DNA of 32,000 nt, taken from Planctomycetales bacterium (GTDB lineage Bacteria > 4484-113 > JAFGCY01). A model generated the notes under the pieces. The model saw only the letters and a program-made list of their open reading frames with translations, did not search any database and was not told the origin of the DNA. The DNA is taken from contig CP060262.1 in NCBI GenBank assembly GCA_022646745.1, forward strand, positions 3,870,001-3,902,000, written 5' to 3'. Each line of letters begins with the position of its first letter. Within the stretch, counting starts at the first letter, position 1. Shown here piece by piece: positions 2,990 to 15,149 of the stretch. A program made the position numbers and the translations under genes.

Positions 2990-3101
2990 GAGAATATCTA
3001 CGGCGGCGGTTTGCCGCCGTTTTCGTTTTCTGGGATAATCGCGTTTCTATCCAGGCTGCCGGGATAGGTATAAGGAATCCGGCACCGATGTGGAGATGAT
3101 G

Positions 3102-4004
3102 ATGAGAATTGCAATCCTGACACTGATCATGCTGCTTGCCGCCATCCCGGCGCAGGCCTACACCCCGAACGTCGGCGACCGAGCAAATGACATCAGCGGC
3201 CGCGACGTGGTGAACGGGGGCGTGGCCCAGCTGTCCGACTACCTCGGCAAGTGGGTGTTCCTCGATTTCTGGGCCGGCTGGTGCGGGCCCTGCGTCGGTG
3301 AGATGCCGAACATGGTGCGTGAAACCAGCCGCGTGAAGGAGCAGTTTGGCAACTTCCAGGTGTTCGGTGTCAGCCTCGATGCCGACAGCACCACCAACCT
3401 GCTGCACAAGTACATCAAGGAAAACAACGTCGACTACCCGGTGACCTACGATGGCAACGGCTGGTCCACCGTGCAGAGCGTGGAGTGGGACATCCACTCC
3501 ATCCCGGCCACCTTCCTGATCAACCCGCAGGGTGTGATCGTCGCCACCAACCTGCGGGGCGAGGCGCTCGGGCCGGCACTCGACTTCTTCGTCGGCTATG
3601 AAGGCACCTACGCCCCGATCGGCCTGAGCAGCAGCTCGGCAGCCAACGATGACGGCAGCGTCAGCCTGAACGTGGAGCTGTTCAGCCCGGACCACCAGCC
3701 GATGCAGCTTGAGGTGGACTACTACCACGTCAAGTACGAGTACACCGAGACTGAATCCGGCGAGCGCAAGCGCAGCGGCAGCGAGTTCATCGAGCCGGAC
3801 GAGGAGAATTCAGAGTTCAGCGAGACCGTCACGTTCGGCGACTTCGGTGACAGGAGCATGAGCTTCACCATTCCCGCAGTGGAGGGTGCCGAGCTCGTGG
3901 GCTACAGCATCCGCGTGAAGCTGCCCGGCACTGATTCCCTCAACGACGGCGAAGGCCTGTGGGTCAGTGACAGCGGCCGTGTACGCATGGAACTTGATAA
4001 GTAA
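3102..4004 (+). CDS. Exported TlpA/ResA-like thiol:disulfide oxidoreductase (CGPC active site) with a C-terminal ~130-aa domain of unknown function
   Basis: ORF track 3090..4004. The start is probably ATG 3102 (MRIAILTLIMLLAAIPAQA, signal peptide). GKWVFLDFWAGWCGPCVGEMP is the thioredoxin-fold CxxC motif. HSIPATFLINPQG contains the cis-Pro loop. The C-terminal extension is shared with the three paralogs below. Confidence 0.85.
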   Translation: MRIAILTLIMLLAAIPAQAYTPNVGDRANDISGRDVVNGGVAQLSDYLGKWVFLDFWAGWCGPCVGEMPNMVRETSRVKEQFGNFQVFGVSLDADSTTNLLHKYIKENNVDYPVTYDGNGWSTVQSVEWDIHSIPATFLINPQGVIVATNLRGEALGPALDFFVGYEGTYAPIGLSSSSAANDDGSVSLNVELFSPDHQPMQLEVDYYHVKYEYTETESGERKRSGSEFIEPDEENSEFSETVTFGDFGDRSMSFTIPAVEGAELVGYSIRVKLPGTDSLNDGEGLWVSDSGRVRMELDK

Positions 4005-4043: not shown

Positions 4044-4946
4044 ATGAGGAACAAGATCCTGGCAATCGCGGCACTGGCAGCCATGCTGCTTCCCGCCGCG
4101 GCACATGCCCAGTTCGAGGCCAAGGCCGGCAACCGTGCACCGGAGCTGTTCGGCACGGATGCGGTGACCGGCGACTGGGTGGACATGGCCGACTTCAACG
4201 GCAAGTGGGTGCTGGCGGAGTTCTGGGCCACCTGGTGAGGACCCTGCATGAGGCAGTTGCCTCAGGTCGTCTCCGGTACCCGCGAACTGATTGACAACGG
4301 CAGGCTGGGGATGATCACCGCCAGCTACGACCGTGACAAGCAGGCCCTGCTCAATGTTATCGATGAGCGGGACATCACCTACCCCGTGATCTGGCAGAAC
4401 CAGGACAGCAATCGTGGCAACACGGAGGACTGGAACATCCGCGGCATCCCGACCACGGTGCTGATCAATCCGCAGGGCACCATCGTGGCTGACCTGCGCG
4501 CCGGTGAGGATTTCCAGCAGGTGCTGGAGTACTTCATCGAGCATGGCGAGGATCTCGGAGTGGTTGACATCAGCGGCAATGCCGTGACCCAGGATGACGG
4601 TTCCGTGAAGGTTGACCTCGAGATGTACTCCAGCCTGCACCGCGCTCTCGACGTGAAGGTCGAGGCCTACCGCGTGGTCTACAAGTGGGACGAGGAGAAT
4701 GACCCGAACCACGAAGGCCGCCCGCTGGACCGTGAATACATCGACCTGGCGGAGGAAGGGCATGACTTCTCCTTCACGCAGGACTTCAAGTGGTTCGCTG
4801 ATGCGGAGCACAGCTTCGTGATTGACAACATCGGAGAGGCTGACGCGGTTTACGTGATGGCCAGTGTGACCTACCCCGGCAGCGAGCACCTCAATGATGG
4901 TGAAGGTGTCGGCGTGTCCTTTGGTCGCAATGTGCCGCTGCCCTAG
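4044..4946 (+). CDS. Exported TlpA-like thiol:disulfide oxidoreductase, predicted selenoprotein (UGPC; in-frame TGA at 4236..4238)
   Basis: Track ORFs 4044..4238 and 4248..4946 are in the same frame. Read-through gives GKWVLAEFWATW-U-GPCMRQLP, with the TGA aligned to the first Cys of WCGPC in 3102..4004. The fold continues downstream with RGIPTTVLINPQG. GGAG lies 7 nt upstream of ATG 4044, and the N-terminus is a signal peptide (MRNKILAIAALAAMLLPAAAHA). Confidence 0.8.
4236..4264 (+). promoter_or_regulatory. Putative bacterial SECIS: UGA + 10 nt + hairpin UGAGG-CAGUUG-CCUCA
   Basis: The stem is 4249..4253 paired with 4260..4264, and the loop CAGUUG is 4254..4259. The same architecture with compensatory stem changes occurs at the other two TGA sites. 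Confidence 0.6.
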
Positions 4947-4973: not shown

Positions 4974-5002
4974 GGGGAGTCCTGCGGGGCTCCCCTTTTT
5001 TT
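4974..5002 (+). terminator. Rho-independent terminator after 4044..4946
   Basis: GGGGAGtcctgcggggCTCCCC is followed by TTTTTTT. Confidence 0.7.
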
Positions 5003-5099
5003 AGCAATGAGCAATGAAGAGTGAGCAATGAGCGTGAATGGCTGCGAGGTGAGCTCCGCCTGAATTTGACTCATTGCTCCTCACTCATTCTTCATTGCT
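5003..5099. repeat. Imperfect 30-nt inverted repeat built from AGCAATG-type heptamers / GAGCAATGAG blocks
   Basis: The left arm 5003..5032 is agcaatgagcaatgaagagtgagcaatgag. The right arm 5070..5099 reverse-complements to agcaatgaagaatgagtgaggagcaatgag. I count 23/30 identical, with perfect 8- and 10-nt ends and a 37-nt spacer. Confidence 0.6.
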
Positions 5100-5235
5100 T
5101 CAATGTTAATTTATTTGACTGATTTTCCCTGGAAAGGATAATACCTAACATCAAGCGCTTGATGTGGTGCGCTGCCTGGCAACAGGCATCGCAGGCCGGA
5201 TGGACTACGACGCCCGGCCGGGGATTCCCAGTCCC

Positions 5236-5317
5236 GGAGGCACTGCGAAGCTGTGCCATTGGAGCTGCGGCGCAAGCCGCACAACCGAGGCCAAGCTGTA
5301 AGCTTGGCTGGAAAGCG
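5236..5317 (+). repeat. Array A: three ~25-nt units of GGAGG/GGAG/GAGG followed by a hairpin, ending in GGAAAG
   Basis: GGAGG(5236)+GCACTGC-gaa-GCTGTGC. GGAG(5261)+TGCGGC-GCAA-GCCGCA (5266..5281). GAGG(5287)+CCAAGC-tgtaa-GCTTGG (5291..5307). Then GGAAAG at 5310..5315. Confidence 0.6.
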
Positions 5318-5412
5318 ATGAGCAATGACGAATGAGCAATGAGCCTGAGAAGAATCGGAGATGACTTCGACCTCCAGGACTCTCATTGCTCACTCTTTAC
5401 AACTCATTGCTC
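5318..5412. repeat. Second inverted repeat of GAGCAATGAG blocks
   Basis: atGAGCAATGAcgaatGAGCAATGAG (5318..5343) faces CTCATTGCTCactctttacaaCTCATTGCTC (5382..5412). The ~38-nt spacer itself contains GGAG...CTCC. Confidence 0.6.
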
Positions 5413-5415
5413 GAC

Positions 5416-5463
5416 GGAGTGCCGGAATTCCGGCATGGCCATGTGGCCTTCGGGCCACACTCC
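5416..5463 (+). other. Compact predicted three-way-junction structure (RNA or ssDNA)
   Basis: The closing stem is GGAGT (5416..5420) paired with ACTCC (5459..5463). Arm 1 is the 14-nt palindrome GCCGGAATTCCGGC (5421..5434). The linker is ATGGCCAT. Arm 2 is GTGGCC-TTCG-GGCCAC (5443..5458), which has a UUCG tetraloop. Confidence 0.45.
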
Positions 5464-5473
5464 GGATTTCTTT

Positions 5474-5587
5474 GGAGGTCTGGCGCAAGCCAGGCTCGGA
5501 GGTCGAGCGCAAGCTCGGCGCGGAGGCCTGACGCAAGCCAGGCTCGGAGGCCAGGTGCAAACCTGGCAGGAAAGTAATGAGCAATGA
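5474..5587 (+). repeat. Array B: four exactly 24-nt phased units of GGAGG + GCAA-tetraloop hairpin, then GGAAAG-TA-ATGAGCAATGA
   Basis: GGAGG starts at 5474, 5498, 5522 and 5546. The hairpins are CTGGC-GCAA-GCCAG, CGAGC-GCAA-GCTCG, CCTGAC-GCAA-GCCAGG (one A/C mismatch) and CCAGGT-GCAA-ACCTGG. GGAAAG is at 5569..5574 and ATGAGCAATGA at 5577..5587. Confidence 0.7.
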
Positions 5588-5747
5588 TCCTCGGGGGACA
5601 CATAAGTAAACACTGAAACATGCTGGCTGGACCGGACAGTGAATCGGGTCTGCCAGTGCCGAAGCTGCATTTAGCCCATCCCTGAACAACATTTCCCGCC
5701 CCGAAGCAGGCCACTGTCCGCTGCGTCAAACAATGCTGCCGGTACAT

Positions 5748-5792
5748 CCTGACTGGCGTCAGGCCCCCTCGCCTGGCTTGTGCCAGACCTCC
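5748..5792 (-). repeat. Array D: two units of the same family on the opposite strand
   Basis: The minus strand reads GGAGGT-CTGGC-ACAA-GCCAG-G-CGAGGGGG-CCTGAC-GCCA-GTCAGG. Confidence 0.5.
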
Positions 5793-5923
5793 ATTTCTTC
5801 GATATTTCGAAATTTCTGAAGTTTTATGTTTATAAATCCCCATGGCGGGGAATTACAAGTGGTTTCGAAAGGAGCAGGAACTTCTGAGAAGCCCCAACAA
5901 CAATATTCTCAGAGGTGAATGTC

Positions 5924-10994: not shown

Positions 10995-11933
10995 ATGAAA
11001 ACGATAAAGCTGATGGTCGCCGTGATGGTTCTCCTGTGGACCGCCCCGGCGCTGGCATTTGAAGCGGATGCGGGAAACCGTGCCCTGCCGCTCTACGGCA
11101 TCGACCGTGTCAGCGGAGACTGGGTTGACCTGGCCGATTACCGCGGCAAGTGGGTGCTGCTGGAGAACTGGGCCACCTGGTGAGGACCCTGCATGGGGCA
11201 GTTGCCCTATCTGCTGGACGAGACCAGTGAACTGCGCAAGCGCAGTGACTTCGCCGTGTTCACCGTGGCATTCGACAACCCGGACCGCGAGCAGGAAGTC
11301 GACAAGGTGATCCGCGAGAAGAAGATCCCGCATGTGGTGGTCTGGGACCACCGCGAGGCGACGGACCTTTCCAACAAGGCCGACTGGAACATCAAGGGCT
11401 TCCCGACCACCGTGCTCGTCAACCCCGATGGCATCATCCAGGGCAGCATGGACGTGGACGAGAACCTTGAGGAGAACCTGCTCTACTTCCTCGAGCAGGA
11501 CAGTGTCCCTGCCCCGATCGGACTGAGCTTCAGCAAGCCGACTGATGACGAGGGAAATGTCATGCTGTCGGACGATGGCTCGGTCAGGCTGACGATTGAT
11601 GTGTACAGCCCGACGCATGAGGATCTCGAAGTGATGGTCGACGTGATGGGCACGAAGATCAGCTATGATGACGAGAAGGATCCCGAGCACAAGGAACCGA
11701 ACTACGAGCCCGTCAACTACCGTGACGAGGGCCGTGCCCCGGACTTCACCGCCAGCTTCAGCCAGTACGGCAGTTTCACCAAGGACGTGATGCTGACGCC
11801 GGAGGAAGGCATGGGCTACCTGTTCGTGGTGGTCAGCGTGAAGATCCCCGGCACCGAGGCGCTCAACGGTGGAGAGGGACTGACGACGTCCAGCTTTGAC
11901 TTCATCAGCTTCCCGAAGGAAGATGCTGAGTAA
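10995..11933 (+). CDS. Exported TlpA-like thiol:disulfide oxidoreductase, predicted selenoprotein (UGPC; TGA at 11181..11183)
   Basis: Track ORFs 10995..11183 and 11193..11933 share one frame. Read-through gives GKWVLLENWATW-U-GPCMGQLP. GGAGG lies upstream of the ATG, and the signal peptide is MKTIKLMVAVMVLLWTAPALA. The cis-Pro loop is KGFPTTVLVNPDG. Confidence 0.8.
11181..11210 (+). promoter_or_regulatory. Putative SECIS hairpin A-UGGGG-CAGUUG-CCCUA-U
   Basis: The stem is 11193..11198 paired with 11205..11210 and includes one G:U pair. The loop CAGUUG is 11199..11204. The 5-bp core stem (UGGGG, 11194..11198) is 10 nt from the UGA as at 4236, and the extra A-U closing pair (11193/11210) shortens that gap to 9 nt. 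Confidence 0.55.
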
Positions 11934-12043: not shown

Positions 12044-12967
12044 ATGACCCGTACCATTCTGGCAACATGCCTGCTGGCCATCCTGCTGGCAGGCAGCCCC
12101 GCGCTGGCATTTGAACCGCTAAGCGGCACACGCGCCTACCCGATCAGTGGCACCGACATCGTCAGCGGCCAGCATGTGGACCTCGACCAGTACCTCGGCA
12201 AGTGGGTGCTGCTCGAGTTCTGGGCCACCTGGTGAGGACCCTGCGTCGGGCAGTTGCCCGAAGTGCAGGCATTGCATGAGCAGTTCGCGGGTCGCGATGA
12301 CTTTGCGCTCTTGTCAGTGAGTGGCGACTACCCCGACAGCATGGACGAACTGCGTCCGATGATTGAGGAATACGGCATCACCTACCCCGTGCTGCATGGC
12401 CTGGATGGCGATGAGCCTGACCTGCACGACTGGGATATTCTCGGATTTCCATCGGCCTTCCTGATCAATCCACAGGGCGTGGTCCTGCTGGAGACGCATA
12501 TCGGTGAGTACACAGCGGGCTGGCTGGAAACACTGCTCAACCTCGAGCAGGAGATTCCCGTGACCCAGCTTTCCGTGGACAATGAGCTGCTGGACAATGG
12601 CGGGCTGCGCTTCACTGTGCGTTCCGACAGGCAGCTGGATGTGCATGTCAATGTCGGCAAGATCCTCGAGGAGTACTGGGAAGATGTTGACGGAGAATGG
12701 CAGGAAGTGGAGAATCCTCCTGCCGACGCAGAGCCCAACATGAGTGCCTACCATTCACTTGACGACTGGGAGAACAGGATTGTCAGCCTTGAGCCGCTGG
12801 ATGGATCATTCGTCTACAGCTTTGAGATTGAGCCAGTTACGGACGACAACCTGTGGTTGATCCAGTGCAGTGTTTCAGCGCAGATCCCCGGAACCGAGGA
12901 GCTTGAAGCAATGCTTCCGATGCTGATGGCGGGAAGCGAATGGTTCAAGCCGGAATCGGATTCTTAG
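12044..12967 (+). CDS. Exported TlpA-like thiol:disulfide oxidoreductase, predicted selenoprotein (UGPC; TGA at 12233..12235)
   Basis: Track ORFs 12044..12235 and 12254..12967 share one frame. Read-through gives GKWVLLEFWATW-U-GPCVGQLP. AGGGAG lies upstream of the ATG, and the signal peptide is MTRTILATCLLAILLAGSPALA. The cis-Pro loop is LGFPSAFLINPQG. Confidence 0.8.
12233..12261 (+). promoter_or_regulatory. Putative SECIS hairpin UCGGG-CAGUUG-CCCGA
   Basis: The stem is 12246..12250 paired with 12257..12261, and the loop is 12251..12256. The second base pair is C-G here, versus G-C at 4250/4263. Confidence 0.55.
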
Positions 12968-12987
12968 GATATAATTTGCCTCCACGT

Positions 12988-13062
12988 CGGGCGGTAGCGC
13001 AGTCCGGTTAGCGCACTAGTCTGGGGGACTAGGGGTCGCGAGTTCGAATCTCGCCCGCCCGA
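12988..13062 (+). tRNA. tRNA-Pro (anticodon GGG)
   Basis: The hand-folded cloverleaf is 75 nt. Acceptor CGGGCGG/CCGCCCG, D arm GCGC-AGTCCGGTTA-GCGC, anticodon arm CTAGT-CTGGGGG-ACTAG, variable loop GGGTC, T arm GCGAG-TTCGAAT-CTCGC, discriminator A. G37 fits Pro. No CCA is encoded. Confidence 0.9.
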
Positions 13063-13085
13063 TATTCCTTTTCCTTATCGCGTTC

Positions 13086-14069
13086 TCAGTAGCGCGTACC
13101 CGCCGTCTGCTCCGGCAGGCCGGCCGTGATCCCCGCCAGCTGCTCAGCACTGAAGCTGATGCCCGCAGCCGCGATGTTCTCCTGCAGGCGGCTGAGCTTG
13201 CGTGTGCCGGGGATGACCGCCAGGTTCGGCGCCTGGTTGAGCACCCAGGCCAATGCGACCTGCGCCGTGCTCACGTTTTTCTCGGCAGCCACTGAATCGA
13301 TCACCTCTAGGAAGCGGCGGTTCTGCTCGAATGCCTCATCGGCAAAGCGCGGGTTCCGACGGCGGAAGTCCGTCTCATCAAGTGAGTCCTTGTCCTTGAT
13401 CGCGCCCGTGAGGAAACCGCGGCCGAGCGGGCTGTAGGCCACAAATGTGGTGCCCAGCGCTGCGGCGGTGCCAAGCATGCCGTCCAGCGGCTCACGACTC
13501 CACATCGACAGCTCGTTCTGCACGGCCGTGATCGGATGGATCTCATTGGCCTCGCGCAGTTCCTCGGGGCTGACTTCGGAGATGCCGATCCAGCGCACCT
13601 TGCCCTGCTCCACCAGCTCCTTCATGGCGCCGATGCTTTCACTGTAGGGCACCTCGCGGTCGCGGCGGTGCATGTAGTAGAGGTCGAGGTTGTCACGGCC
13701 CAGCCGCCTGAGGCTGGCTTCACAGGCCTGATGGATGTACTCAGGCCGGTTGTTGATGCCGGTGAAGGCTCCATCAGCGCCACGTTCCACCGCGAACTTG
13801 GTGGCGAGCACCAGCTGGTTCCAGCGGCCGGCGAAGGCGCGGCCGATCAGTTCCTCATTGTGTCCACTGCCGTACATGTCAGCGGTGTCGAAGAAGTTCA
13901 CGCCGAGGTCCAGCGCTCCGTGCAGCACCTTGATTGATTCAGCTTCATCACTTGGTCCGTAGAATTCGGACATGCCCATGCAGCCCAGTCCGACGCGGCT
14001 GATTTCAGCATCTGTGTTTCCGAGCCTGATCCGCTTCGGGATCATCTTCCCTGCAGTGTTTGCATCCAT
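13086..14069 (-). CDS. Aldo/keto reductase family oxidoreductase
   Basis: 327 aa. The motifs GLGCMGMSEFYG, NFFDTADMYGSGHNEELIG, RDNLDLYYMHRRD and KVRWIGISEV are canonical AKR motifs. Confidence 0.9.
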   Translation of the reverse strand: MDANTAGKMIPKRIRLGNTDAEISRVGLGCMGMSEFYGPSDEAESIKVLHGALDLGVNFFDTADMYGSGHNEELIGRAFAGRWNQLVLATKFAVERGADGAFTGINNRPEYIHQACEASLRRLGRDNLDLYYMHRRDREVPYSESIGAMKELVEQGKVRWIGISEVSPEELREANEIHPITAVQNELSMWSREPLDGMLGTAAALGTTFVAYSPLGRGFLTGAIKDKDSLDETDFRRRNPRFADEAFEQNRRFLEVIDSVAAEKNVSTAQVALAWVLNQAPNLAVIPGTRKLSRLQENIAAAGISFSAEQLAGITAGLPEQTAGTRY

Positions 14070-14309: not shown

Positions 14310-15149
14310 ATGAGCATGAAAACTGAACAGACGGCACCTTCCGCGGAAATCCTGGCGGCCTTTGGCCTGCCCAGCGTCACGCCCCGCCTGCTGGCGGACG
14401 GCCGTGGGCGCAGCTGGTCAGTGACCAGCGCGATCCTGCGTCCGGTTGACGACGTAGACGAGGCCCGCTTCGCCGCCGAACTCTATGGCGTACTGGACGG
14501 CGATGGCTTCCGCATCCCACGTCCGATGCGTGCTGGCGATGGCAGCTTCGTGGTGGATGGCTGGAGTGCCTGGCACTACCTGCCGGGCCGCCATGACTGC
14601 CAGGGTGACTGGCAGGGCATGCTGGATGCCAGCGTGGCCTTCCACAAGGCCCTGGCTGGCACCGACCCGCCGGGCTTCCTGGCAACGCCGCGCCACCACT
14701 GGGCCCAGGCGGACCGCATCGCCTGGCAGGAGGAACGCTGCGGTGAGCGCTGGAACCTGCGCGACGCGATCGAGCGCCAGCTTGAGCTGTGCGATCCAGC
14801 GGACAGGCGCCTGCCGAAGCAGCTGGTGCATGGCGACATCGCCGGCAACCTGCTGTTTGAGGAAGGCCTGGCACCGGGAGTGATTGACTTCTCCCCCTTC
14901 TGGCGACCGGTGGCCTATGCGCATGCCGTGCTGGCTGTGGACGCAATCTCCTGGATGGGGGCTGATGCGAATATTCTCAGGATGGTTCGCGCTGAGGGCG
15001 TGACGGATTCGCTGCTGCGCCGTGCAGTGGTGTTCCGCCTGGCTGCGGTCAGCGCTTCACCCGAACATGGCGCCACCGACCAGCAGGCGGAGCTGGCCGC
15101 CTGCAGCAAGGTGCTGTCCCTGATCGAACGCCCGCATCCGCTCGGCTGA
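14310..15149 (+). CDS. Phosphotransferase (APH/choline-kinase-like) family protein
   Basis: 279 aa. The catalytic loop LVHGDIAGNLLF (HxDxxxxN) is followed by VIDFS (DFG-equivalent). Confidence 0.6.
   Translation: MSMKTEQTAPSAEILAAFGLPSVTPRLLADGRGRSWSVTSAILRPVDDVDEARFAAELYGVLDGDGFRIPRPMRAGDGSFVVDGWSAWHYLPGRHDCQGDWQGMLDASVAFHKALAGTDPPGFLATPRHHWAQADRIAWQEERCGERWNLRDAIERQLELCDPADRRLPKQLVHGDIAGNLLFEEGLAPGVIDFSPFWRPVAYAHAVLAVDAISWMGADANILRMVRAEGVTDSLLRRAVVFRLAAVSASPEHGATDQQAELAACSKVLSLIERPHPLG

Follow-up and report, generated by a model that had tools for sequence, protein, structure and literature searches.

Within a 32,000-nucleotide stretch of a Planctomycetales metagenome-assembled genome (contig CP060262.1, positions 3,870,001 to 3,902,000; hereafter the window), two open reading frames (ORFs) on the forward strand, 4044..4238 and 4248..4946, are a single gene and not two. 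Our analysis indicates that the in-frame UGA which interrupts this gene is very probably decoded as selenocysteine (Sec), which would take the place of the first Cys of the CxxC motif in a protein with a TlpA/ResA-like thioredoxin fold. The evidence comes from the alignment with a Cys-containing paralog located directly upstream, the conservation of the TGA among orthologs, and a covarying hairpin next to the TGA that is lacking in Cys homologs. The features on which the argument is built are the following:

4044..4946, forward strand: full gene of 300 codons, with Sec predicted at codon 65 (single frame with one TGA, Pfam matches, layout of the orthologs)
4044..4109, forward strand: predicted signal peptide MRNKILAIAALAAMLLPAAAHA, likely cleaved after AHA (read from the sequence)
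4236..4238, forward strand: in-frame TGA, predicted Sec codon, at the first position of the UxxC redox motif (aligned with Cys; present in 5/5 orthologs)
4249..4264, forward strand: candidate bacterial Sec insertion sequence (SECIS) hairpin, UGAGGC-AGUU-GCCUCA, with a stem of 6 bp and a 4-nt loop (model constraints, covariation)
4440..4478, forward strand: cis-Pro loop region RGIPTTVLINPQG of the thioredoxin fold (P136 invariant in the alignment, inside the Pfam match)
3102..4004, forward strand: Cys paralog (CGPC), first gene of a probable operon (BLASTP, Pfam and structure model; annotated in GenBank as TlpA family protein disulfide reductase)

A single gene interrupted by TGA at the redox motif

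The two ORFs have a common frame, and between them lie only the TGA (4236..4238) and the codons GGA CCC TGC; this layout confirms the claim of an earlier note on this DNA that the split ORFs are one frame interrupted by TGA. Reading through the TGA gives ...GKWVLAEFWATW-*-GPCMRQLP..., with the motif FWATW-TGA-GPC, and the Cys paralog has ...GKWVFLDFWAGW-C-GPC... at the homologous place. The read-through product and the Cys paralog are 34% identical over 291 aa (BLASTP, E = 9e-56), with the TGA facing the first Cys, as the earlier note had read it. Alignment with more distant homologs gave the same result, the TGA column being Cys both in these and in the paralog. A Shine-Dalgarno sequence (AGGAG) is found 9-13 nt 5' of the ATG at 4044. 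We read the hydrophobic N-terminus ending in AHA as a putative signal peptide, and the alignment showed that a hydrophobic N-terminus ending in A-x-A is common to all four paralogs of the window (the Cys paralog, the Sec gene and the two further Sec paralogs described below).

With U written as C, the read-through product scored above the gathering score of three Pfam families: PF00578 AhpC-TSA (44.2 bits, cut-off 26), PF08534 Redoxin (40.8 bits, cut-off 26.6) and PF13905 Thioredoxin_8 (39.4 bits, cut-off 27). These matches extend over residues 27-149 and run across the TGA at codon 65. An N-terminal beta-hairpin and the strand KWVLAEF, which leads to the active site, lie upstream of the TGA; the W-U-G-P-C motif occupies residues 64-68, and Pro136, within GIPTT, is invariant in the paralog alignment. 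Consistent with this, an AlphaFold2 model of the Cys paralog (predicted local distance difference test score, pLDDT, 89) places a beta-hairpin (32-35, 41-43) and the central strand (51-57) before the CxxC, which is located at residues 61-64 at the start of helix 62-82. Taken as a proxy for the Sec protein, this model matches ResA (1st9/2f9s), a DsbE-like protein (3gl3) and BVU-2223 (4grf), with a target TM-score of ~0.8. The earlier note had placed the thioredoxin fold wholly downstream of the TGA, a point that has to be corrected, as both the Pfam match and the strands of the paralog model span the TGA. This strengthens the conclusion that there is one gene, and the model suggests that neither of the two ORF products could fold without the other.

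The model of the Cys paralog also has an eight-stranded all-beta domain without Pfam match in the C-terminal region (residues ~170 to 300; 174-295 in the Cys paralog, with a pLDDT of about 90), and the C-terminal ~130 residues of all four paralogs had no Pfam or NCBIfam match. Matches in the PDB were limited to the thioredoxin domain, although DipZ (2hyx) aligned poorly over both domains (TM-score of about 0.35). Among the NCBIfam models, scores were well under the cut-offs for ResA (NF002854, 75 bits against 170), TlpA (NF047696, 45 bits against 230) and NF041054, a WAxxUGC ResA-like selenoprotein (35 bits against 300), and far under them for StoA and DsbE, and no NCBIfam selenoprotein model recognized the Sec protein. 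Therefore, the protein is TlpA-like by fold and not an ortholog of any named enzyme.

Conservation of the TGA codon among assemblies and orthologs

The identical gene, including its TGA, was found in four independent assemblies (NCBI GCA_020440665.1, Logan SRR12358676 and two ENA assemblies), which excludes a sequencing error. The proteins encoded in the window are identical to UNM08249-UNM08270 and MCB12219xx, and the GenBank entries for this gene (UNM08251.1, MCB1188668.1 and MCB1222152.1) comprise only the 232-aa downstream fragment (4248..4946), annotated as 'hypothetical protein'. Likewise, the seven closest proteins in a collection of 5.8 billion proteins are all fragments of 221-232 aa, each starting with the Met that comes shortly after the TGA. 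At the DNA level, the orthologous contigs (L001/L002, L003, L004 and L005) all carry an ORF of 61-64 codons, a TGA and an ORF of 221-232 codons, with the sequence FWATW-TGA-GPC. The orthologs have 61-78% amino-acid identity, and 5/5 of them keep the TGA. Across these five, the proportion of synonymous differences (pS) is 0.46-0.69 and the ratio of nonsynonymous to synonymous substitution rates (dN/dS) is 0.13-0.44 upstream and 0.14-0.29 downstream of the TGA. These ratios, well below 1, show purifying selection on both flanks of the TGA.

These data bear directly on the possibility that the locus is a pseudogene or an assembly error, that is, a TlpA-like gene with a nonsense mutation from TGC to TGA or with a base-calling error. 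Such a change needs a single base, and the annotation of the downstream fragment alone as a hypothetical protein would fit it. However, the TGA is present in independent assemblies and in every ortholog at 61-78% identity, the dN/dS values are low on both of its sides, it also occurs in two further paralogs of the window and in their orthologs, and a conserved hairpin lies next to it. A pseudogene or an error is effectively refuted by this conservation, and we give it next to no probability.

A candidate SECIS hairpin next to the TGA codon

The hairpin at 4249..4264 starts 10 nt after the TGA, with 16 nt from the UGA to the loop, and its AGUU loop has a G at the second position followed by a U (at +21 and +22 when the U of the UGA is numbered 1). 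The 18-nt segment 4248..4265, which contains the hairpin, has an energy of -9.5 kcal/mol, and the 16-nt hairpin alone one of -8.7 kcal/mol. The published model of the bacterial SECIS (bSECIS) has a loop of 3-9 nt, a stem of 4-16 bp, a G in the first two loop positions, a spacing of 16-37 nt from the UGA and a minimum free energy (MFE) of at most -7.5 kcal/mol (PMC13188914, Fig. 2 legend). The earlier note had pointed to the region after 4236 as the place for such an element and, with the constraints applied directly, the hairpin found there lies within all of them (PMC13188914).

The window encodes two further genes of this kind:

10995..11933, forward strand: second Sec paralog, NWATW-U-GPC (TGA at 11181..11183; hairpin AUGGGGC-AGUU-GCCCUAU at 11193..11210)
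12044..12967, forward strand: third Sec paralog, FWATW-U-GPC (TGA at 12233..12235; hairpin UCGGGC-AGUU-GCCCGA at 12246..12261)

Both are split ORF pairs with a Shine-Dalgarno sequence, a signal-like N-terminus, an AGUU hairpin at equal distance and the same C-terminal region. A scan of the whole window for in-frame TGA codons with coding-like flanks and a SECIS-compliant hairpin returned exactly three sites, 4236, 11181 and 12233, all with the motif W-A-T-W-TGA-G-P-C. The hairpins of the three Sec paralogs have stems of 6-7 bp, a spacing of 16 nt and energies of -9.5/-9.6/-11.0 kcal/mol (18-nt segments) or -8.7/-9.6/-10.2 kcal/mol (bare hairpins).

Conservation below the amino-acid level was found on several scales. 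The five orthologs use identical codons from +2 to +9 after the TGA, AGG, UUG and CCU included; considering degenerate codons whose amino acid is invariant, 7/8 are frozen in the nine codons after the TGA vs 36/128 elsewhere (Fisher p = 0.0013). Among the three paralogs, the two strands of the stem differ by compensatory changes (UGAGGC/GCCUCA, UGGGGC/GCCCUA and UCGGGC/GCCCGA). An alignment of 11 sequences of the clade had 93.9% of its cells paired, with double changes in two of the six pairs (A-U/G-C and G-C/C-G), and RNAalifold independently predicted the identical helix. Finally, an alignment of 30 sequences, obtained with a covariance model from the clade and its wider-family matches at E <= 0.005, had 96.9% of cells paired and 19 double-change cells vs 2.6 in shuffles, with 0/500 shuffles reaching the observed value and all slid registers much worse.

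The hairpin was also compared between genes with Sec and genes with Cys at this position. The Sec set was obtained by scanning metagenomes with a DNA pattern for W-A-x-x-W-TGA-G-P-C and comprises 68 distinct genes in a thioredoxin context among the matches listed, a limit that applies to all the figures given for this set. The Cys set comprises 93 distinct W-C-G-P-C homologs (at most 41% identity) from a profile scan of genome contigs with a Cys codon. Over the 36 nt that follow the codon, the MFE averaged -11.5 kcal/mol in the Sec set vs -5.7 kcal/mol in the Cys set, and an uninterrupted stem of at least 6 bp was present in 51% vs 10% of the genes. When each site was compared with other 36-nt windows of its own gene, which controls for G+C content, the Sec sites were 3.3 kcal/mol more stable (p = 8e-11) and the Cys sites 1.0 kcal/mol less stable. 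As the contrast holds with G+C controlled, the hairpin is tied to the UGA and not to the encoded peptide. In the metagenome Sec genes the loop sequences differ (AGUU, GUG, CGUGCC and others) and the position of the hairpin is kept. In addition, no hairpin was found in the Cys orthologs of 3102..4004 in L003, L004 and L005 (best stem, 2 bp).

It should be noted that the Cys paralog of the window has, at the SECIS-homologous position (3295..3309, forward strand), a weak 5-bp hairpin, UCGGU-GAGAU-GCCGA, whose energy of -5.5 kcal/mol is weaker than the -7.5 cut-off. It may have arisen by chance, from the GGN...CCN of G-x-x-P, or be what is left of a decayed element.

A further possibility is that translation terminates at the UGA (4236) and re-initiates at the AUG at 4248, producing a 64-aa peptide and a separate 232-aa protein, with GAGGA in UGAGGA serving as Shine-Dalgarno sequence. 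GAGGA is indeed located 6 nt upstream of the ATG at 4248 and of the ATG at 11193, and exactly this split is predicted by gene callers. However, the Met is not conserved, being replaced by GTC in the third paralog and mostly by R, K, V and others in the 68 W-U-G-P-C genes. The GGA of this sequence is the Gly codon of UGPC, which elsewhere is GGC, GGG or GGT. Since the domain spans the TGA, the downstream piece would miss the signal peptide, the central beta-strand and the attacking residue. Re-initiation also leaves unexplained both the covarying hairpin and its lack in Cys homologs, and we regard it as very improbable.

TGA as a stop codon in the window and the Sec machinery

TGA is the stop codon of at least nine further likely genes of the window, and TGA-ended genes include products with end-to-end Pfam matches (e.g., Adenine_glyco, 1-177/177, and Aldo_ket_red, 2-287/291). 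TGA is thus an ordinary stop for these genes, which rules out a reassigned code. This result also weighs on the idea that the UGA is read or recoded independently of Sec, with Trp, Cys or Gly inserted through a near-cognate or suppressor tRNA, or through reassignment of UGA. Low-level read-through of UGA with Trp or Cys is known in bacteria, and the Sec machinery was not found within the window and the orthologous loci, which would both agree with this explanation. Against it, UGA terminates the genes just mentioned, several of them with end-to-end Pfam matches, and the G+C content is about 60%, unlike that of the known lineages with reassigned UGA. Moreover, the site falls exactly at the position of the redox Cys, with a hairpin that fits the SECIS model, and selenoproteins of the UxxC TlpA/Prx-like type are established as a class (PMC1794560, PMC13188914). 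We therefore consider read-through without Sec to be improbable.

Several observations weigh against Sec decoding and have to be considered together. Neither selA, selB, selD nor a gene for tRNA-Sec was identified in the window or in the orthologous loci: ARAGORN detected no tRNA-Sec in any of the fetched loci, and tblastn searches of these loci (2.06 Mb) with approximate E. coli SelA, SelB and SelD queries returned no SelA or SelD, the only matches being to GTPase domains in unrelated loci. In favour of Sec decoding, complete Sec machinery has been reported in some Planctomycetes (PMC4807772). As for the hairpin, its z-score against shuffles is only -1.25 (single-sequence fold of a 71-nt segment), its spacing of 16 nt is the shortest that the SECIS model allows, the encoded G-x-x-P motif favours part of the stem (GGN...CCN), and the 30-sequence alignment leans towards structure, as it was fitted to the model. 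It is the comparative evidence, rather than the single-sequence fold, that carries the case for the hairpin. Taken together, the proposal of the earlier note that the UGA encodes Sec in place of Cys is supported by the TGA in 5/5 orthologs, the covarying hairpin, the hairpin-free Cys homologs and the ordinary use of TGA as a stop.

Probable operon and proposed mechanism

The surroundings of the gene and its Cys paralog include two putative transcription signals:

3011..3039, forward strand: promoter-like site preceding the Cys paralog (by match to the consensus only)
4974..5002, forward strand: strong intrinsic-terminator-like hairpin with a T-run, 28 nt past the Sec gene's stop codon (sequence scan)

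A scan of this region of the window found no terminator-like site after the TGA at 4236. With a promoter-like site before 3102..4004, a terminator-like site after 4946 and none after the TGA, the two genes have the look of a two-gene operon, suggesting that the Sec gene is co-transcribed with the Cys paralog directly upstream. During translation, the hairpin UGAGGC-AGUU-GCCUCA would be bound by SelB carrying Sec-tRNA(Sec), and Sec would be delivered to the UGA at codon 65 in competition with release factor 2. The full-length protein would then be exported, and Sec65 and Cys68 would form a selenol/thiol redox centre acting on extracytoplasmic substrates, with Sec as the attacking residue in the W-U-G-P-C active site of an exported TlpA/ResA-like thiol:disulfide oxidoreductase. 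Sec insertion, export and the redox partner are steps that we infer.

It is conceivable, by analogy with the Cys/Sec isoenzyme pairs of methanogens, that 3102..4004 and 4044..4946 are a selenium-dependent back-up pair, and that the three Sec paralogs and the Cys paralog, with their common C-terminal beta-sandwich, represent a distinct secreted selenoprotein subfamily without a curated model. We hold this broader proposal to be tentative and rather unlikely. If it were true, an extracytoplasmic selenium-dependent redox pathway in Planctomycetales would be directly testable.

No cytochrome c maturation genes were found near the Sec gene. Between the terminator-like site and a further promoter-like site (5115..5142), we observed an imperfect 30-nt inverted repeat (5003..5099, with arms at 5003-5032 and 5070-5099) that is 77% complementary and contains AGCAATGAG-like units. 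The region 5000..5900 has no convincing gene.

Comparison with known selenoproteins and thiol:disulfide oxidoreductases

The in-coding hairpin of E. coli fdhF is a well-known bacterial SECIS, with G23 and U24 as the corresponding loop positions. The candidate described here resembles it: both lie within the coding sequence and directly follow the UGA on its 3' side, and each has a small apical loop that contains GU at a nearly equal distance from the UGA. It differs in its shorter, perfect stem of 6-7 bp without a bulged U and in its unrelated sequence, and binding by SelB is here only a proposal.

The Sec protein shares with ResA of Bacillus subtilis, TlpA of Bradyrhizobium and CcmG-DsbE the W-C/U-x-P-C motif, the cis-Pro loop and an N-terminal export signal (predicted here). 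Unlike these proteins, it would have Sec instead of Cys, it has an extra C-terminal domain, and its gene lacks nearby genes for cytochrome c maturation. With the selenoproteins of NF041054 it has in common a ResA-like fold (as modelled for the Cys paralog), the W-A-x-x-U context and an active-site Sec (predicted here); however, the motif there is U-G-C and here U-G-P-C (UxxC), and the score noted above makes it a non-member.

Predicted bacterial UxxC selenoprotein families with the TlpA/AhpC-TSA/Redoxin fold have been described (Zhang et al., 2006, PMC1794560, Table 1; 2026 review, PMC13188914, Table 1), and catalogues have listed selenoproteins of the UxxC TlpA/Prx-like type since 2005-2006 (PMC1794560, PMC13188914). 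The gene would therefore add a member to a familiar class of selenoproteins. Compared by description, the known families and the protein predicted here share the Pfam fold families (PF00578/PF08534), Sec in place of the N-terminal Cys, a SECIS directly downstream and the existence of Cys homologs. The differences are ~140 extra C-terminal residues forming an all-beta domain without Pfam match, the lack of a matching NCBIfam selenoprotein model, and the presence of three Sec copies and one Cys copy within 10 kb of a Planctomycetales genome. These copies, the extra domain and the lack of a curated model amount to a modest novelty, and the current understanding of Sec decoding is unchanged.

With regard to annotation, the Sec gene, its two sister genes and all the orthologs found are split and recorded as C-terminal fragments. 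The sequence evidence points to a Planctomycetales lineage that decodes Sec and in which what would be a periplasmic selenoenzyme has been expanded to three copies. TlpA-like genes with W-U-G-P-C occur commonly in metagenomes from soil, freshwater and marine habitats; one 23-nt DNA pattern was enough to find at least 68 distinct genes there, so this selenoprotein class is abundant and can be flagged automatically. Some of the metagenome contigs (L086-L205) carry two nearby Sec copies, such as L181 (reverse-strand offsets 2560 and 3725) and L172 (1124 and 2381).

The further predicted Sec paralogs and their surroundings

The three Sec groups are separated from the Cys forms in a neighbour-joining tree (midpoint-rooted, no bootstrap), a pattern that fits duplication of a gene already carrying Sec and SECIS; the three Sec paralogs probably arose in this way. 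The paralog 10995..11933 has TGA-bearing orthologs in L003 (15137), L004 (6252) and L184, and the paralog 12044..12967 is absent at the syntenic positions of L003 and L004. In these two contigs, a tRNA-Pro(GGG) gene directly follows the second Sec paralog (L003, 15868..16077; L004, 6953..7144). In the window, within 12044..14069, the paralog 12044..12967 sits between the second Sec paralog and the tRNA gene (12987..13063), which is followed by an aldo/keto reductase gene on the reverse strand (13086..14069). The third Sec paralog and the aldo/keto reductase gene look like lineage-specific insertions beside a tRNA gene.

Finally, L003 contains another pair of same-frame ORFs split by TGA (14507..14890, forward strand; EYFATA-*-AETRQ). 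This pair has neither a redox motif nor a SECIS-compliant hairpin and probably does not encode a selenoprotein.

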